This document shows positions 24,837 to 64,000 of a DNA stretch of 64,000 nucleotides, in pieces. Numbering within the stretch: the stretch's first letter is position 1; each line of letters begins with the position of its first letter. The stretch spans positions 5,152,001-5,216,000 of the forward strand of contig CAWAIF010000003.1 of NCBI GenBank assembly GCA_963782055.1. The letters run 5' to 3'. The notes below the pieces were generated by a model. That model was not told the origin of the DNA. It worked only from the letters and a program-made list of their open reading frames with translations, and did no database searches. This DNA is from an uncultured delta proteobacterium. Lineage in GTDB: Bacteria > Myxococcota_A > Polyangia > Polyangiales > Polyangiaceae. The translations under genes and the position numbers were made by a program.

Positions 24837-24889
24837 GCATAGGAAATGCTGGCGCGATCGGGCGCGACACTTCACGAAATCCCTCTTAT
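24837..24889 (+). repeat. dispersed bipartite repeat, arm A (copy 1)
   Basis: GCATAGGAAATGCTGGCGCGATCGGGCGCGACACTTCACGAAATCCCTCTTAT. Confidence 0.85.
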
Positions 24890-48162: not shown

Positions 48163-49779
48163 TCAGAGCCCGGTGACCTTGCCGTCGCGCGCGATGCGGA
48201 AGGCCTTGACGCCCGCGTTGCTGTTGATGGTCTCCACAAAGAGCACGGCCGCGTCTCGACGCGCCACCAGCTCGAAGTCGTCTTGGATGACGCTCGACAT
48301 GAACGGCTCGCCGCCGCTCGTGGTGTCGTCGTAGATCGGGCGGTCTTCCGTCTTGTCGATGTCGCCCGGCTTCGCGACCACGTACCTCACGCCGCGACGG
48401 CTCGACCGCCACACGACGACGACGGCGTCGCCGAGGCCGACCGCTCGCACGTCCGAAGGCGCGCGCGGTCGCGCCGGCTCGGCGAGACGCGAGAATGCCT
48501 TGCGCAGATCGACCGTGTCGACCGGAGCGCACCCGCGGGCCGTGCATCGCGCGACGTGAAGCGTGAGCCCGTCCGCCGATGCGTCGACCAAGCTCGTGAA
48601 GGTCACCGCATCCACGCCGCACGACGCGGCGCTGTGCCTTTCGGCGCTGCCGATCGATCGCGGAATCGTGAACGTGTGAACGGGCGAGTGCTCGTCGTCA
48701 TGAAAGAACACCACGTAGCCCGGTCCGTAGATCGTCAGCGCGTCACGCACGAAGCAGCCGGCGAAATACGACGGCTTCGGGACGACGCCGATGTCTTCGA
48801 TCCCCGACGCCGTCGTGCCGACGAAGCGCCTGGCGAACAGATGCCGGGTGCCGTCCTTGGCGTCTTCGAGCCAAACCGCGCGGTCGCCGAGGAGGGTCAC
48901 GTCGGCGTTGGCCTCGGTGGTCCACTTGGCGTCGACGAGCGGCCCGTTCCCGCGGGACGCCGCATACGAGAACGTGGAGTCGCTGCCGGGGTTGCTCGAT
49001 TGTCGCGAGAGCACGAGCACGCTGCCGTCGCTCTCGCCAAACGCGGTGCACGCGCGACCCGTGCAGAACGGACGGGCGTCGTCCGCGCGGTGGACGGAGT
49101 CGCCGGACGAGTGCCAATCTTGTTGCCCCGTCGGCGCGACGAGAAGCGGCGCTCCGTCGGCGCTGCCGGCGAGGACCGACTTCGGGACGAGCGCACCCGG
49201 ACGGCACGCGATCTTCCCGATGGGCGCGCGCGACTCGCACAACGTGGTGCCGCCGAGGATGAAGTGGAGGTCCGCGCCCGGCACGGGATCGAAGCTCGCG
49301 CCGATCAAGCTCGCACGAAGAGCGAGCGGTGTCGTGCGCTCGTCCGCGACGTCCGCATAGGGAGGCGCGGCCGGTACGTCGTCAGGAGGCGGGCGCGTGC
49401 TCGGGCGCACGCCGAAATACGCGTCGAACGCGTAGGGCGAGCTCTCCACCGTGTCGACGTCGATGACGGGCGACGGTGCCTGCAGGTCGATGCCTTCGAG
49501 CGCCTCGTCGACCTCCTCGTAGTCGCGAACGTACTTCTCGCATCGCGCAGGCCAGCCCTTGGGCGGATGGCCGAGCATGATGCGATGAAGCCGAGCCGAT
49601 GCTTCCTCCTTCGGTAGAAGCGGCGCGCCGAACAGGCATTTGTGCACCGACGCCAGCGATGCAGCGGCGCGGCGAACCCGGTAAACCCGCGTGGCGTAGG
49701 TGACGGCGAAATAGGCCGCGACGCACCCCGCGGCGAGCCCGCCGAGCTTGACCCATCTTCGGCCGTTCACGGTGGGCAC
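48163..49779 (-). CDS. hypothetical membrane-anchored protein
   Basis: 538 aa with N-terminal TM. GTG start overlaps the left end of an arm-A repeat. Confidence 0.65.
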   Translation of the reverse strand: MPTVNGRRWVKLGGLAAGCVAAYFAVTYATRVYRVRRAAASLASVHKCLFGAPLLPKEEASARLHRIMLGHPPKGWPARCEKYVRDYEEVDEALEGIDLQAPSPVIDVDTVESSPYAFDAYFGVRPSTRPPPDDVPAAPPYADVADERTTPLALRASLIGASFDPVPGADLHFILGGTTLCESRAPIGKIACRPGALVPKSVLAGSADGAPLLVAPTGQQDWHSSGDSVHRADDARPFCTGRACTAFGESDGSVLVLSRQSSNPGSDSTFSYAASRGNGPLVDAKWTTEANADVTLLGDRAVWLEDAKDGTRHLFARRFVGTTASGIEDIGVVPKPSYFAGCFVRDALTIYGPGYVVFFHDDEHSPVHTFTIPRSIGSAERHSAASCGVDAVTFTSLVDASADGLTLHVARCTARGCAPVDTVDLRKAFSRLAEPARPRAPSDVRAVGLGDAVVVVWRSSRRGVRYVVAKPGDIDKTEDRPIYDDTTSGGEPFMSSVIQDDFELVARRDAAVLFVETINSNAGVKAFRIARDGKVTGL

Positions 49780-49828
49780 GTAGGAAATCCTAGCGCGGTC
49801 GGGCGCGAAAGTTTACGAAATCCATCTT
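49777..49828 (+). repeat. dispersed bipartite repeat, arm A (copy 6, left of insertion)
   Basis: CACGTAGGAAATCCTAGCGCGGTCGGGCGCGAAAGTTTACGAAATCCATCTT. Confidence 0.9.
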
Positions 49829-50006
49829 GGACGAAGCCGCTGCGCGGCAGCGTGGCTCCGCATCAAGCTCGCTCGCGACCCGGGAGCCCCGCGAGCCGTG
49901 TGCGCGCTGACGAGCCCGCCTCGTAGCCCTCGCGTGCCGTGATGCGGGCGATCCTGCGGCGCGCGCCGCCCGCTCGTGGGCGCGCGCGGAGCCGAAGGAG
50001 GCCGCG

Positions 50007-50852
50007 ATGGGTGCGAAGCGAAGACTGCGGGACACGATGAGCGAGGACCTCGCGCTGCGAGGGATGAGCGCCAACACGATCGCCACGTACGTGGGGTGCG
50101 TGCGGCGGTTCGCGCAGTACCACGGGCGGTCGCCGTGCGCGCTGGGGGCGGCGGAGATCCGGACGTTCCTTTTGCACCTGGTGGCGGAGCGCAGGCTGGC
50201 GGCGCTGACGGTCAACGTGCACGCGGCCGCGCTGAGGTTTCTCTACGAGGTGACGCTGGAGCGGCCGGAGGCGACGCTGGGGATGGCGCGCATGCGGGTG
50301 CCGATGCACGTGCCGGTGGTGCTGACGAGCGCGGAGGTGGCGCGGCTGCTCGCGTCGCTCACGAGCCACAAGCACCGGGCCCTGGTGATGCTCGCCTACG
50401 GGGCGGGGCTGCGCGTGAGCGAGGTGTGCAAGCTCCGGGTGGACGACATCGATCCGAAGCGGATGCTCCTGCACGTGCGGCACACCAAGCGCGGGCGTGA
50501 GCGCTACGTGATGCTCAGCGCGAGGCTGCTGGCGACGCTGCGCGCGTACTGGAAGGCGTCACGACCCGCAGGACCGCAACTGTTTCCGGGGCGCGTGCCC
50601 GGGACGCTCCTCACGCGCGCGGCCGTCCACCGGGCGATCCTCAAGGCGGCGCGGCGCGCGGGCATCACCCGGCGCGTGTCGCCGCACACGCTGCGCCACA
50701 GCTTCGCCACGCACCTGCTCGACGCAGGGACCGACCTTCGCACGTTGCAGGTCTTGCTCGGGCACGCGTCGCTCAGGAGCACGATGGCCTACCTGCACGT
50801 GAGCACCGCCCGCGTGCAGTCGATTCAGAGCCCCCTCGACGCGCTGCCCTGA
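50007..50852 (+). CDS. site-specific tyrosine recombinase/integrase
   Basis: GLRVSE, HTLRHSFATHLL and LGHASLRSTMAY catalytic motifs; SAM-like N-domain; no IntI-specific insertion seen. Confidence 0.93.
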   Translation: MGAKRRLRDTMSEDLALRGMSANTIATYVGCVRRFAQYHGRSPCALGAAEIRTFLLHLVAERRLAALTVNVHAAALRFLYEVTLERPEATLGMARMRVPMHVPVVLTSAEVARLLASLTSHKHRALVMLAYGAGLRVSEVCKLRVDDIDPKRMLLHVRHTKRGRERYVMLSARLLATLRAYWKASRPAGPQLFPGRVPGTLLTRAAVHRAILKAARRAGITRRVSPHTLRHSFATHLLDAGTDLRTLQVLLGHASLRSTMAYLHVSTARVQSIQSPLDALP

Positions 50853-50858
50853 GCCCCG

Positions 50859-51815
50859 ATGCACCCGTCGTGTGCGCCCGCGCGCACGCGCGCGGCGCCC
50901 ATCGAGCTCGCGGACGTGGTGCGCGCCCACGGCGAGGCCTTCGCCGGCGGCCGCGTGCTGCGTCCCGAGGAGCGGTCGGCGCTGCGGGCGATCGAGCGAT
51001 GCCGGACCGCCGCGCTGGGCGGACATCTGGACGTGTGCACCGCGTGCGGGCTCGAGCGACCGTCGTACAACTCGTGCCGCAACCGGCACTGTCCCAAGTG
51101 CCAGTCGCTCGCGCAGGCGCGGTGGGTCGCCACGCGGCTCGAGCGCATTCTGCCCGTGCACTACTTCCACGTCGTCTTCACGCTCCCCGCCGAGCTGCGC
51201 GCCGTCGCGCGGCGCTCGCGCGCGCGGGTCTTCGACATGCTCTTCGCGAGCGCGGCCGACACGCTGGCCACCCTCGCGCGGGATCCGAAGTGGCTCGGCG
51301 CCGAGCTCGGCGTCACGATGGTCCTGCACACCTGGACGCGCGCGCTGCTCTTCCACCCCCACGTGCACGCCATCGTCACCGGCGGCGGACTCACCGGCGA
51401 CGCCGCGCGCTGGGTGCGCGCGCGCCGTCGCTTCCTCTTCCCCGTGCGCGTGATGGGCGTCTCGATGGGCGAGCGCGGCGTCACCTTCCGCACCAGAGAC
51501 GGCAAGTCGGTCACCGTCCCGGCCGAGGAGCTGCTCGCGCGCTTCGTCCAGCACGTGCTGCCGCGCGGCTTCGTCAAGATCCGCCACTACGGCCTGCACT
51601 CCGCCAGCCACGCCACCACGCGCCTCGAGACCGCACGCCGCAGACTGGGTCCGCACGCGCCCGCTGCGCGACCGGAGCGCCGTGCCGTCGCCGCCGACCT
51701 GCTGCTGCGAATCGCGGGCATCGACCTGCGCCGCTGCCCCGCTTGCCACACGCCTGCCCTCGTGCGCACCGCGCTGCCCGAGCCCCGAGCTCGCGCCCCG
51801 CCGAGGGCCGCATGA
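50859..51815 (+). pseudogene. IS91-family transposase with in-frame internal deletion
   Basis: Zn-finger SCRNRHCPKC, HVVFTLP, HPHVH (HUH) and IRHYG are present, but no YxxRY catalytic segment between FLFPVR and VTFR. Confidence 0.8.
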
Positions 51816-52142
51816 TCTCCCCGCGTCGTGCTCCACTGCGCTCGCTCCACGAGTGCGGCCCAGGCCCCTGTCCATCCGCGCCACCAAAAACCGCCCTCCG
51901 AGCACGCACGGCTGCCCGCTGCGCGCTCCGGGACGCCCGCGTCGAGCGCCGTCCCGCCGCCCGCTCGGCACCTCGCGCACCCGCACACGTGACCCACACG
52001 CCGCCAACTTCCCCATAGGGCTCCGAGGCCACCGCCTCGCCGCTGCCGCGCACCGGCTTCGTCCAACCGTCGATTTCGCGACCGCGCACCCGCGCCACGC
52101 GACCGCCGCCGCGACCCGGCGCGCTCACGCAATCGACTCTTA

Positions 52143-52190
52143 CTTATGCGAAATGGCCGTCCGGTCTCACTGGAAGGACGGACCAGGGTG
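52143..52190 (+). repeat. dispersed bipartite repeat, arm B (copy 6, right of insertion)
   Basis: CTTATGCGAAATGGCCGTCCGGTCTCACTGGAAGGACGGACCAGGGTG. Confidence 0.9.
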
Positions 52191-54936: not shown

Positions 54937-55449
54937 GTGACGGAGTACAGCGCGGCCTTCAAGGCCAACATGGTGAAGAAGCTGATTGTGCCCGGGGGCC
55001 CGACGGCGTCGGTGCTCTCGATTCGATCGGGAGTCTCGCAACCAACATTGTCCCGGTGGCTTCGGGATGCGAAAGAGGAGGGCATGTCCCACCGCAATCC
55101 CTCCGCGAGAGTCCCCCGTCGTCCCAGTGAATGGAAGCCCGAGGAGAAGCTCCGAGTCCTCGCGCAGGCTGACGGCCTCGCGGGTGACGCGCTCGGGGAG
55201 CTTCTGCGTCGGGAGGGACTTCACGAGGCCGACCTCGCCGGGTGGCGGCGTGCGGCACTCGGGGCTCTGGGGCCGAGCTCGAAGACGACGAGCTCCGCGG
55301 AGGCGAAGCGGGTGCGGGAGCTCGAGCGGGAGCTTTTGCGCAAGGACAAGGCGCTGGCGGAGACCGCCGCGCTGCTCGTTCTGAAAAAAAAAGTCCAGGA
55401 GTACTGGGGGGACGAGGACGACAGCACGAAGAAGGAGACCGACAAGTGA
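54937..55449 (+). CDS. IS3 transposase OrfA
   Basis: HTH region and 'ELERELLRKDKALAETAALLVLKKK'. Confidence 0.88.
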   Translation: MTEYSAAFKANMVKKLIVPGGPTASVLSIRSGVSQPTLSRWLRDAKEEGMSHRNPSARVPRRPSEWKPEEKLRVLAQADGLAGDALGELLRREGLHEADLAGWRRAALGALGPSSKTTSSAEAKRVRELERELLRKDKALAETAALLVLKKKVQEYWGDEDDSTKKETDK

Positions 55450-56462
55450 TCGTGGACCTGGTGGAGGAGGCCGTCAGGGCGGGGGCGCGACGCGACAGGG
55501 CCTGCGCGATCATCGGCCTGTGCCCACGCACCCTCGCCCGGTGGCGCGCCGACGGCGGCGGCAAGGACAGGCGCGGACAGAGCGCCGTGTCCCCCGTGCA
55601 CAAGCTCACCGAGGCGGAGAGGGCCCAGATCGTCGCGCACGCCACGTCGCCCGAGTACCGCGACCTGTCGCCGCGCCAGATCGTGCCCCTGCTCGCGGAC
55701 AAGGGGGTCTACGTCGCGTCCGAGTCGAGCTTCTACCGCGTGCTGCATGAGCACGGCCTGATGAGCCACCGGGAGCCGTCTCGCCCACGTACGCACCGGC
55801 GTCCGCCGGAGCACGTGGCCATCGCGCCGAACACGGTCTGGGCGTGGGACATTACGTACCTGCGGAGCCCGGTGCGGGGGATCTTCTTCTACCTGTACCT
55901 CGTCCTGGACATCTTCAGCCGCAAGGTCGTCGCCTACGAGGTCCACGAAGTCGAGTCGGCGGACCTCGCCTCGAGCTTGGTGGAGTGGGCCTGCGAGCGC
56001 GAGGGAGTGGCGCGGGACGCGCTCGTGCTGCACGCCGACAACGGGGCCCCGATGAAGGGCTCGACCATGCTCACGACGCTGCAGCGCCTCGGCGTCGTCG
56101 CCTCCTTCAGCCGTCCGAGCGTGAGCGACGACAACCCTTTCGCCGAGGCCATCTTCCGGACGCTGAAGTACCGCCCGGGCTACCCCAAGAAGCCCTTCGC
56201 CAATCTCGCCGAGGCCACGGCCTGGGTCGACGGCTTCGTCGCCTGGTACAACGGCGAGCACCTCCACAGTGGCATCCGCTTCGTCCGCCCCATCGACCGC
56301 CACGAAGGCCGCGACAAGGCCATCCTCGCCGCCAGGCACCGGCTCTACACCAGGGCCAAGGCCCGCACCCCGCGCCGGTGGACCCGAGGCACCCGCAACT
56401 GGACACCAGTCGGCGCCGTCCGACTGAACCCGGAGAAGTCGGACGCGTGCATCATGCACTGA
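55446..56462 (+). CDS. IS3 transposase OrfB (DDE), reached by -1 frameshift
   Basis: WAWDITYL, LDIFSRK, HADNG, DNPFAEAIFRTLK and YNGEHLHS. Confidence 0.9.
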   Translation: MIVDLVEEAVRAGARRDRACAIIGLCPRTLARWRADGGGKDRRGQSAVSPVHKLTEAERAQIVAHATSPEYRDLSPRQIVPLLADKGVYVASESSFYRVLHEHGLMSHREPSRPRTHRRPPEHVAIAPNTVWAWDITYLRSPVRGIFFYLYLVLDIFSRKVVAYEVHEVESADLASSLVEWACEREGVARDALVLHADNGAPMKGSTMLTTLQRLGVVASFSRPSVSDDNPFAEAIFRTLKYRPGYPKKPFANLAEATAWVDGFVAWYNGEHLHSGIRFVRPIDRHEGRDKAILAARHRLYTRAKARTPRRWTRGTRNWTPVGAVRLNPEKSDACIMH

Positions 56463-60650: not shown

Positions 60651-60701
60651 CGCATAGGAACTGCTAGCGCGGTCGGGCGCGAAAGTTTACGAAATCCATC
60701 T
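60651..60701 (+). repeat. dispersed bipartite repeat, arm A (copy 7, abutting the intron 3' end)
   Basis: CGCATAGGAACTGCTAGCGCGGTCGGGCGCGAAAGTTTACGAAATCCATCT. Confidence 0.92.
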
Positions 60702-61259
60702 ATCGGCATAGGGGCCCCGGGTTTCCCCGGGGACCCCTGCCACACCACCGGACAGGCGGGTCCGCATCCGGCGGTTCGGAGAGTTGAGGTCACGTGTCGA
60801 GCCGGGGAAGCCCCAGCTCGTCGAAGAGCTTGTTCGGCAGAGCCACGCTGAGGACGCGCATTCCCGAGGTTCGCCACCAGCGCGTCGTATTTGCTGCCGC
60901 GCGGCGAGCGTCGACGGGAGGGATCCCCCGTCGGCGCAGTTCTCGGAAGACGGTGACTCCTCGCACCCACTGCTTCAACTGCAGTGCGCGGAGTCGGTGC
61001 CGGATCCAAGAGTCCAGCTCGCGAAAGAGCGTGCGGAGCTCGACAAGCTGGAAGTAGTTCTTCCAGCCTGGCAAGTACCCTCGCAGATCTCGGCAGACCT
61101 GGGCCAGGCTCCGACCGCGCATGCGGCTCGTCATGTGCCGCACGCGGTCCTTCATCGTGTCGAGGGCCTTGCGCGCGATCGTGCAGCGGACCTCGTTCTT
61201 CGACGACAACCAAAAGGTGTAGCCGAGGAACTTCCGGTCTTGCACGGGTGCCACCGCGC

Positions 61260-62704
61260 CATGCCCGATCTCTTAAGCACCGATCGCCCCAAGTTTGAGG
61301 GCGATTCGTTTCCTGGAGCGTGAAGGTTGTCGTTCGCGTGCCAGAGCGACGAGTGCCGCGCCCACGGTGGTCACGACGGCAGTCCACGCGGCGGTGCTCA
61401 GGGAGACGAGGGCGTCGACCAGGTCCCGCGCGTAGGCGCGCACGACGTGCAACGTCGCCAGGGGGCGCAGTTGCTCGAGAGGGACGTCGCGCGCGAGTGC
61501 AGCCTGGATCCTGACCGAGCGCACGAGCGCGTGGGCGAGCATCGCGCCGTAGGTGAGCGCCTTGATCGCGTGGGGATCGGCGGTGAAGGAGCGGCCGAGG
61601 TCGGCGGTCTGCTTCAGCTCGCGAAAGAGCAGCTCGATCAGCCAGCGGAGTCGGTAGGTCTGGATGATCTGCCGTGGCGAGAGCACGCTGCGCGGCACGG
61701 TGGTCAGGTACCAGCGGATGACGGTCGACTTGTGCGCGAGTCCCACGAGCCGCAATGCGACGGTGTCCTTGCCCTTGCCCCACGTCACGTCGAGGTCGAA
61801 GATCGTCCCGCGCTTGCGCGACACGCTCTGCAGGTAGTAGCCAAGCGACCAGTTGTGGAGCGGGGTGTGGCCGTTCTCCGAGATGTGCGCGGTCACGCGT
61901 ACCTTCGCCGTGGTCTTGAGGCGCATCAGCACGTGCGCGCCGGCAGCCTTCGCCTGGGTGAACAGAGCGCGCTCGAAAAAGCCGAGGTCGAAGAGGTAGA
62001 GCACCCCGCGCGTGAAGCTCGGGACCAGCTTCCGCCACAGCGGCGTCTCCGACGCGGTCTCCGCGTCGGAGACGCCGTGCTCGAGCAGGCCGGTCTTGAT
62101 GCTGTAGCCCATCACCCACTTGGTGCCGGCCTTGCCCTTGGTGCATCCCGGCAGCAGCTCGCGCCCGCGCGGTGGCACGCGCTGCCCCGTACCGTCGTAG
62201 ACCCGCACGTCCTCGAAGCGGGCGAGCGGCCCGCTCAGCTCCAGGCCCGCCGCCTTCGTCACCGACGCCACGAGGTGCTCGAGCGCCGCGCGGAAGAACG
62301 CCGCCGCCGACTCCTGCTTGAACCGCTTCTGGAACGGGCACGGGCGCATGAAGCCGAAGCGCCTCACGAAGATCGCCCGCAGCGACTCGAACGACAGCGT
62401 CTGGCCCGCGAGGAACCCCTCGACGACCGTGAGCACCAGGCGGAACGCGGTGGCGCGCCGCTGCCGCGGGTTGTAGCCGGTGCGGCCCCGAAGCTCGTCG
62501 ATGACCGCCGGCGTGAAGGTCCGCTGCAGCTGCTCCTCCACCGCGCTCGCCTCTTCGCTCGGGTCTGGACGGCTGCTCGTGGCTCGGGTAGCTCTCGTCG
62601 TCATCGGGCGTCCTCTCCTTGTTGGTGTCGCAACCGAACAACGAGAAAGGCGCCCGATTTATTTCCATCATTCCGCCACGTTATGTCCAAAGGATCTGGC
62701 CATG
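61260..62704 (-). mobile_element. IS4-family insertion sequence inside the intron RT
   Basis: CATG-terminated imperfect IRs; 10-bp TSD GCCACCGCGC at 61250-61259 and 62705-62714. Confidence 0.9.
61273..62604 (-). CDS. IS4-family DDE transposase
   Basis: VYDGT, LFDLGF and YRLRWLIELLFRELKQ (YREK motif). Confidence 0.92.
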   Translation of the reverse strand: MTTRATRATSSRPDPSEEASAVEEQLQRTFTPAVIDELRGRTGYNPRQRRATAFRLVLTVVEGFLAGQTLSFESLRAIFVRRFGFMRPCPFQKRFKQESAAAFFRAALEHLVASVTKAAGLELSGPLARFEDVRVYDGTGQRVPPRGRELLPGCTKGKAGTKWVMGYSIKTGLLEHGVSDAETASETPLWRKLVPSFTRGVLYLFDLGFFERALFTQAKAAGAHVLMRLKTTAKVRVTAHISENGHTPLHNWSLGYYLQSVSRKRGTIFDLDVTWGKGKDTVALRLVGLAHKSTVIRWYLTTVPRSVLSPRQIIQTYRLRWLIELLFRELKQTADLGRSFTADPHAIKALTYGAMLAHALVRSVRIQAALARDVPLEQLRPLATLHVVRAYARDLVDALVSLSTAAWTAVVTTVGAALVALARERQPSRSRKRIALKLGAIGA

Positions 62705-64000
62705 GCCACCGCGCTCTTCGACTCGTTGATCTGGAGATGGAGCTTCGCGTAGAGACGCCGCAGCGCCTGCATGACCCGCTCGCCCGCTCGCCGTGACCGC
62801 ACGTAAACGTTGCTGTCATCGGCGTAGCGCACGAAGGCGTGTCCGCGCTTCTCCAGCTCCTTGTCGACTTCGTCGAGGAGCACGTTCGCAAGCATTGGCG
62901 AGAGAGGACCGCCCTGGGGCGTTCCCTCGTCGCGATCCATCACGACGCCGTTCGCCATGATGCCGGCGTTCAGGTAGCGACGGATGAGTCCCAGCACGCG
63001 CCGATCCTCGATTCGTTTGGCCAGTCTCCCCATGAGCACGTCGTGGTTGACGCGGTCGAAGAAAGCTTCGAGATCCACGTCGACCACCCATCGTCTTCCT
63101 TGCTGCACATACCGCTTCGCCTCGCGCACGGCGTCGTGCGCGCTGCGCCGCGGCCGGAAGCCGTGGCTGTGCTCCGAGAAGGTCGGATCGAATCGAGGCT
63201 GCAGGACCTGCAAGAGGGCCTGCTGGATGAGTCGGTCGAGCACCGTCGGGATGCCGAGCTGTCGCTCGCCGCCGCCGCTCTTCGGAATCACGTGCCGTCG
63301 CACCGGCTGCGGCTGGTACGTCCCCGCGAGCAGCTGCTCGCGGAGGGACGGCCAGTGCACGCGAAGGTGGTCCGGTAGCTCCTCCACCGTCATCCCGTCG
63401 ATGCCGGGACTGCCCTTGTTCCGCTTCACTCGCTTCAGCGCGGCCTGAAGGTTCTTGCGCGTGAGCGCCGCCTCCATCAGCCCGCTCGTTCCTGAGCGCT
63501 CGGTTCCATGGGTCGCCGAATCCGCTTCCACGCGTCGGTCGTCGCTCGGGGCTTCACCATCCGCGGCGGTCGGCGTCTCGCTCTTGGACTTCTGTGGCTG
63601 CGCGTTCTCGAGATCCATGGGCGTTTCGCCCTCCTCTCCGTTTGGCCCTTCGCAGCGATAGAGACTTCCGGGGTTCGGGGGGGGTCCCTGCCCGGCTCCT
63701 TCGCCGCTACTACGGCCTCTGCTGACTTCTCGCTCCGTCCGACGTTGTCGCCGGCCGTCGCCCTTTCAGGCGCGAGGCGAGATCTCCCCAGGTAAGAGCA
63801 TCAACCTTCACCGCACGACCGCCGGATATACGCCGCCGAGCTTCGGTCACGAGAGCTTCGCGGGTTCCAGTCCGCTCGCCCTGCTCGGCCACGCCTCCGA
63901 TCCGATTTCTGTACGTCGGCCCGCGGCTTCGCTCCCCACTTCCTCCAGACGGTCCCTCACGGTTCCGCCCTTGTGGTTCGCTTCTGTCATTGTGACCAAT

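Follow-up and report, generated by a model that had tools for sequence, protein, structure and literature searches.

Organization of the locus

The 64,000-nucleotide stretch analysed here (hereafter the window; contig CAWAIF010000003.1, positions 5,152,001 to 5,216,000) comes from an uncultured member of the Polyangiaceae and carries, at 49827..52143 on the forward strand, an IS91-family element in which a tyrosine recombinase gene stands upstream of the transposase gene. The element measures 2317 bp (intact copies, such as that at G000:C3:2728949-2731469, 2521 bp) and is a transposase-deleted copy inserted at the border between one arm and the spacer of a sequence that mimics the chromosomal dif site. 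The anatomy of the element, its set of copies, its target, the position of the crossover, and a variable dinucleotide carried along by such elements can be read directly from the compared sequences. For its movement, a two-enzyme cycle is proposed as the probable course on sequence grounds, in which the HUH transposase would generate a bottom-strand circle by copy-out, to be pasted in as a single strand by the recombinase that the element itself encodes.

The recombinase gene (50007..50852, forward strand) is intact in the window copy and encodes a 281-residue, IntI-like protein without the IntI insertion. Its best NCBIfam match is the integron integrase model TIGR02249 at 199 bits, under the cut-off of 265, and positions 180-238 of that model have no match in the protein; similarly, about 40 residues of IntI4 are without a counterpart. 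The residues R136, K161, H227, R230, H253, and Y262 are all present, and the catalytic residues are invariant across 12 aligned relatives. A host IntI was considered and rejected, since no IntI match over the TIGR02249 cut-off occurs anywhere in the host genome; candidates for XerC and XerD are encoded there. The IS91 (Y2 HUH) transposase gene (50859..51815, forward strand) encodes 318 residues that match NF033538 at 296 bits, compared with 390 bits for an intact copy and a cut-off of 125. A 201-bp in-frame deletion after 51459 takes out the YLGRY motif with its catalytic tyrosines, so the transposase of the window copy is predicted to be inactive; the same deletion is found in 4 of 12 copies examined in the genome, which sit at different sites.

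Ends of the element and predicted attachment site

The left boundary is marked by the TT at 49827-49828, directly after ...CCATC, and the right boundary lies at 52143, where ...CTCTTAC is followed by TTATGCG. According to the IS91 end rules taken from PMC13181058, the left end (49827..49852, forward strand) consists of the carried dinucleotide TT, a terIS-type tetranucleotide that reads GTCC on the bottom strand (49829-49832), and a subterminal palindrome (49838-49852). An inverted copy of this end occupies 52041..52067 on the forward strand, with 25 of 26 bases identical between 49827-49852 and 52041-52066, and closes in an R''-like box, GTCCAAC (52061-52067). An oriIS-like motif with a CCCCATAG core lies internally at 52005..52020 (forward strand), about 125 bp before the right end. 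Beyond the box stands the inner hairpin of the predicted attachment site (52069..52137, with the bottom strand as the best fold), whose stem is closed by GTCGATT at 52069 and AATCGAC at 52131, followed by a six-base bulge (52138..52143, forward strand) whose last base is the right crossover. A sequence-only reading of this DNA had proposed an element of this extent that starts with TTRRRY and ends in RYYYAAC and a hairpin; the motif positions and the coordinates of the 2317-bp element are all present in the sequence, and both end features are there.

Taken by itself, the integrated hairpin is of modest stability, with -27.1 kcal/mol and a z of -2.6 for the bottom strand and a z of -1.8 for the top strand. 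When the two ends are joined, they form a long bottom-strand hairpin of -66.3 kcal/mol, compared with -37.1 for the integrated junction, and the extra folding energy stems from the inverted repeat itself. In this joined-end fold, the left end (49827..49852) is predicted to act as the outer arm of the attachment site, the overlaps measure 7 and 11 bases, and the spacing is AA-7-TT / AA-11-TT, with 1x1 mismatches in the stem and not extra-helical bases. An Rfam scan returned matches to group II intron domains only.

The dif mimic as target

The element splits a copy of a 100-bp repeat, the left half of which lies at 49776..49826 and the right half at 52144..52190 (both forward strand). This repeat forms the end that lies downstream of a Y2 transposase of ISCR-like type, of which the genome has three copies, and constitutes the oriIS end module of that ISCR-like element; its last bases are the motif that closes the oriIS of IS91 and IS1294. 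Within it lies an 11-6-11 site, which is made up of an XerD-like arm at 49810-49820 and a 6-bp spacer at 49821-49826 (49810..49826, reverse strand) and, across the insertion, an XerC-like arm at 52144-52154; the arms are named after the dif consensus. Compared with a unique site at C3:3558767, which coincides with the peak of the cumulative GC skew and is very likely the chromosomal dif, the repeat's site agrees at 10/11, 4/6, and 9/11 bases; for the window copy, the XerD-like arm is identical at 9/11 and the spacer at 4/6. The insertion lies at the border of the spacer and the XerC-like arm of this mimic, and seven of 11 bases are equal between the element's outer arm and the XerC-like arm. 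The chromosomal dif carries no element insertion. Unoccupied repeats that share this core are frequent in the genome, where a search with the arms gave 24 matches, including the chromosomal dif itself. In the window, copies of the repeat occur at 24837, 34503, 44371, 47288, 49776, and 60650; the spacing that the sequence-only reading had restored by removing the element is in register with the copies at 24837 and about 44371, and the predicted empty site as such does not occur in the 64-kb window at up to 3 mismatches. Three copies of the repeat were folded, giving energies no better than those of shuffled sequences (z 0.0, 0.3, and 2.0), on which account the repeat was rejected as an attC and is treated as a double-stranded, dif-type site.

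Throughout the host genome, 13 left ends and 13 right ends of the element were located. The right ends are followed by TTAT in 12 of 13 cases and by TTTAT in the remaining one; ten of the left ends adjoin the left half or spacer of the repeat directly, nine after C and one after G, and the other three are split by a group II intron (one after C, one after G, and one rearranged). The dinucleotide at the junction is TT in every case. One such intron occupies window positions 60701-64000 (G000:C3:5212701-5216046), where it lies reversed, separating the two T's at the left junction of a further copy of the element, and is itself split by a multi-copy 1.45-kb element; the same spot is used in two more host copies and in locus L039, and nearby positions are used in three to four Mesorhizobium copies, a placement that recalls the attC-targeting group IIC introns.

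The repeat has further properties of its own. Each copy of the ISCR-like transposase stands at one end of a mostly co-oriented repeat cluster (G000:C3:4411500-4487000 and 5176800-5265300), and the identity of the repeats to the gene-attached copy declines with distance from the ISCR-like gene, which suggests polar growth of the array. The repeat appears to be a hotspot for several element types, since a different insertion, bounded by short terminal inverted repeats, splits one of its copies within the XerC-like arm at G000:C3:4450600-4452200. On the reverse strand, a 538-residue open reading frame without a Pfam match (48163-49779) begins with a GTG inside the repeat's outer end; the consensus repeat has an ATG one base off this position and thus might supply flanking genes with start codons. 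Farther along, two overlapping reading frames at 54937-56462 resemble an IS3-family transposase pair.

Relatives and their shared layout

The recombinase has relatives in 24 of the 201 genomes from the host's family and 29 of the 401 from the phylum, in 291 plasmid records, and in no fewer than 597 metagenome stretches, 80 of which were retained. The 156 loci that were parsed include several copies of the same elements, and the counts pool kin and multi-copy elements; the recombinase is present in 155 of them, with the transposase behind it in 135. Ends were placed by a motif-anchored parser, which recovered the left-end motif in 118 of 155 loci and the right end in 74 of 155. The base-match, motif, and tetranucleotide counts were made after the removal of 10-14 loci whose right ends had been miscalled. 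The right-end layout is constant among the relatives and consists of the complementary box, a short spacer, a hairpin of variable sequence, 5-9 bases, and the junction. Across 12 aligned right ends, compensatory changes occur in 7 of 16 predicted hairpin pairs, and a bottom-strand z below -2 is reached in 46 of 47 distinct right-end modules (top strand, 39 of 47), these modules having been chosen for possessing a stem. The hairpin that the sequence-only reading had placed beyond the 26-bp repeat is real, conserved, and covarying in relatives; moreover, ends that stop at that repeat and unrelated insertion sites, which that reading had named as evidence against it, are not what the relatives show.

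The left tetranucleotide, read on the bottom strand, is GTTC, GTCC, or GTAC in 118 of 155 loci. Of 55 right ends, 41 carry the oriIS-like motif at a distance of 27-59 bases ahead of the box, whereas the motif turned up in 2 of 55 control windows. Beyond the right junctions, 50 of which were scored, there is no conserved target tetranucleotide of the IS91 type (at most 0.17 bits).

Several loci have features of their own. In genome G152, whose recombinase is 76% identical to that of the window, loci L031, L226, L228, and L229 have different left halves joined to one right half at CGCCCG|TT of dif-like sites, which look like exchange points of a cassette-like array. Two G152 loci, L031 and L032, hold a recombinase gene followed by unrelated DNA in which no right end was found; they are therefore not evidence of transposase-free movement and were rejected as recombinase-only mobile copies. 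A 3.5-kb variant in genome G215 (L149-L154) contains two recombinase genes, the first apparently without catalytic residues. At L269/L272 (W04:C1:807611-807699), a solo hairpin copy with mirror-image ends and no genes lies between GCATAA and TTATG arms, and in L041, L095, L150, and L152, the right-end hairpin is tandemly duplicated wholly or partly, with one right end directly abutting another left end.

Target choice, crossover, and the carried dinucleotide

The targets of the relatives share the geometry of a recombinase core, namely two arms around a 6-bp spacer. For example, L202 and L221 sit in palindromic GCATAA-N6-TTATGC cores on rhizobial plasmids, L040 and L041 sit at attC-like hairpins, and the end of a three-recombinase element is likewise occupied. 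Among 110 distinct left flanks, AA occurs at -8/-7 in 25, as opposed to 2-13 at the other 20 positions, and the base before the junction is A in 41, G in 37, T in 18, and C in 14. The CTT that the sequence-only reading had taken as the core of the element is consequently not a property of the element: the base before TT derives from the target and is G, A, or C among the relatives, at least one host copy uses G, and the G152 element ends in A|TT, although both the empty sites and the occupied left junctions of G152 read G|TT. Comparison of homologous junctions therefore upholds ends that lie past the repeat and leaves no fixed CTT.

In 54 element-target pairs, the target base at -1 is the one offered by the folded partner strand 45 times (shuffle mean 18.8; as many in 0 of 20000 shuffles), and the base at -2 is so 35 times (shuffle mean 15.7). 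This count pools kin and was made once ten loci had been set aside because their right ends were miscalled. Recombination between attC and attI likewise needs a match at the first base (PMC2811028), and such a match sets the specificity of CTX phage (PMC4246890).

From two empty alleles, the entry crossover can be placed on the 5' side of the element's first two bases. In the first pair, Rhizobium T1473 is the empty allele of the T136 copy L218, the flanks of which it joins without a gap; in T136, the target's GT was retained on the right and AT was brought to the left, and sister copies have TT there. Similarly, Mesorhizobium AR07, with four spacer differences, is the empty allele of the AR02 copy L200, in which AT was retained on the right and TT was brought to the left. 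A search among plasmids for empty alleles of L201, L210, and L214 found none. The crossover 5' of TT, as the sequence-only reading had it, is borne out by these alleles and by the junctions.

Near-identical copies differ in their first two bases, which end at the IS91 terIS cut site: a bottom-strand GTCC or GTTC beside a palindrome, the terIS signature, stands two bases inside the entry cut. In six Microvirga copies, the left dinucleotides are TT, AT, GA, AT, AT, and GA, the right ones are AT, CA, GA, GA, GT, and AA, and the left values AT and GA recur as right values of other copies. A two-base target duplication was rejected, because the left and right dinucleotides differ in five of the six. 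If the same bond served for exit and entry, one side would stay fixed; variation on both sides is predicted by neither enzyme alone.

Comparison with known systems

The two-gene layout of the window element is that of the IS91-family elements with an upstream tyrosine recombinase, such as ISShvi3 and ISWz1, and the element is a member of this subgroup. The recombinases of IS91 elements have been reported to group with IntI while lacking its helical insertion (10.1101/542381), ISShvi3 has been observed beside attC (PMC9229058), and ISWz1 forms circles, with ISWz1-type relatives reported beside resistance genes (PMC11322121). Literature searches, which did not extend to ISfinder, TnCentral, or most subscription journals, returned no account of the end architecture, the dif-mimic targeting, or the mechanism. 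With the canonical IS91, IS801, and IS1294, the element shares the Y2 HUH transposase, the terIS tetranucleotide beside a palindrome upstream of the genes, an oriIS-like motif, and the lack of target duplication. In contrast to them, it has a 26-bp inverted repeat and a hairpin beyond the ori motif, so that no oriIS stands at the very end; it has no tetranucleotide target adjoining oriIS; and the recombinase takes the place of Orf121.

Integron cassettes resemble the element in starting at N|TT, in ending with an R''-like box and a hairpin, in folding on the bottom strand, and in a crossover match of 1-2 bases. However, the element encodes its own recombinase without the I2 insertion of IntI, has no invariant GTT triplet, and shows AA-7-TT / AA-11-TT spacing with mismatches in place of extra-helical bases, unlike the canonical attC; a canonical attC is therefore not supported.

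CTX phage and the integrative mobile elements exploiting Xer (IMEX) resemble the element in that their attachment site folds with overlaps of unequal length and they enter a dif-type site at its XerC-side border (here a dif mimic and not the chromosomal dif); if the proposed cycle holds, a rolling-circle single strand is a further common trait. The overlaps of CTX attP measure 5-7 and 12 (PMC4246890), to which the 7 and 11 of the window element are close. Unlike CTX phage, the element encodes a recombinase of its own, avoids the true dif in its host, and has no phage genes; it thus belongs neither with the canonical cassettes nor with the IMEX, although under the proposed cycle it would work in the manner of both. 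The SE elements and Tn554 move by copy-out and take flanking bases along to their new location, as would happen in the proposed cycle; in their case the bases number six, and several recombinases are at work with no HUH protein.

Proposed cycle and rival explanations

The active intermediate of IS91 is a bottom-strand circle (PMC13181058). In the cycle proposed for the window element, an intact transposase, acting in trans for the window copy, would cut after GTCC at the left end and cut the right end two bases into the flank. The resulting circle junction would fold into the outer arm, bulge, and inner stem; the recombinase would then cut the bottom strand after the carried two bases and the target core at the border of the 6-bp spacer, and a single strand exchange would leave a junction to be resolved by replication. 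With exit and entry cuts two bases apart, a daughter would inherit at its left end two bases from the right flank of its parent. The targets, being two-armed recombinase cores, make paste-in by a tyrosine recombinase likely, and the terIS tetranucleotide, the oriIS-like motif, and the variable two-base fingerprint point to HUH-made circles. Of the self-integration claimed in the sequence-only reading, the paste-in by the element's own recombinase is accordingly retained as likely and the purely integrase-driven cycle is not supported; HUH-dependent excision, which had been named as contrary to that claim, would refute its excision half and leave the integration half standing.

Several observations weigh against this cycle. 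The fingerprint rests on two empty alleles, one of which differs in four spacer bases, and on six copies on one plasmid, and it is not visible in the host genome, where the dinucleotide is uniform. The pattern used to search for left ends itself fixes most of the tetranucleotide, and the oriIS-like motif is about 125 bp internal, compared with 3-4 bases from the nick in IS91 and IS1294, which implies a right-end cut that is not canonical. The window element breaks the base-match rule (target C or G, partner G, own end base C), the six G215 copies with two recombinase genes have a one-sided, AT-rich target, and contigs from four soil runs of low cover contain no end-to-end circle joint. In addition, XerC and XerD candidates exist in the host, and the target mimics dif.

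An autonomous cassette, in which the element's own recombinase would carry out both excision and integration, with the HUH protein either confined to replicating the circle from the internal ori-like motif or not needed at all, would account for the cassette-like geometry of the ends, the internal position of that motif, and the transposase deletion found at different sites in 4 of 12 examined copies; the recombinase-only SE elements and Tn554 also carry flank fingerprints (PMC10214605). Such a cassette is nevertheless considered unlikely: excision at the entry bond would fix the first two bases, yet these vary; SE fingerprints span 6 bp and not 2; the two-base offset stops at the terIS tetranucleotide; the full fold requires joined ends; the transposase gene stands behind the recombinase in 135 of 155 loci; and intact copies in the host genome could act in trans. 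Slightly less probable still is the integration of an HUH-made circle at dif mimics by the host XerC, as in CTX phage, with the element's recombinase as a resolvase or passenger. The true dif is unoccupied, the relatives have entered palindromic cores, attC-like sites, and a three-recombinase element's end and not dif, and the catalytic residues are invariant in 12 aligned recombinases. What speaks for XerC is a target with XerC-like and XerD-like arms entered at the XerC-side border, the match of the outer arm to the XerC-like arm at 7 of 11 bases, and a folded site with CTX-like unequal overlaps (PMC4246890).

A classical IS91 cycle is regarded as highly improbable; in it, the HUH transposase would perform both excision and insertion, the hairpin would serve as an oriIS palindrome, and the recombinase would play a subsidiary part. 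The entry cut in the empty alleles lies two bases from the GTCC cut, no target tetranucleotide is found, and the targets are two-armed with a 6-bp spacer. On the other hand, the G215 copies appear one-sided, and the partner-target match could be a form of guide pairing, which occurs in other HUH transposons. IS91 ends do bear subterminal palindromes, but family members are described without terminal inverted repeats (PMC13181058).

Implications

The gene pair has already been catalogued; the two-enzyme cycle would bear both on what the recombinase does in these IS91-like elements, which are common, and on the origin of single-strand recombination in integrons. Escudero et al. regard CTX as the only similar reaction and as an incomplete one, because CTX encodes no integrase (PMC4792948). 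If the proposed cycle is true, elements of the window's type would be the complete system and would form a bridge between IS91 transposons, the integration of cholera phage, and the cassettes of integrons. On a broader and more tentative view, which may quite possibly be right, these widespread minimal elements represent a complete, self-encoded, CTX-type integration, in which an HUH enzyme supplies the single-stranded circle and an integron-like recombinase that predates the I2 helix inserts it into the recombination sites of other systems (dif mimics, attC, and three-recombinase element ends); they would then be living models of the proposed Xer-to-integron intermediate, and the two-base fingerprint would record the lineage from parent to daughter. 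The offset between exit and entry cuts would allow the roles of the two enzymes to be separated by sequencing, and the host genome provides intact copies, dead copies, and empty targets. Because ISWz1-type relatives occur near resistance genes and form circles, the mechanism also bears on the spread of genes.

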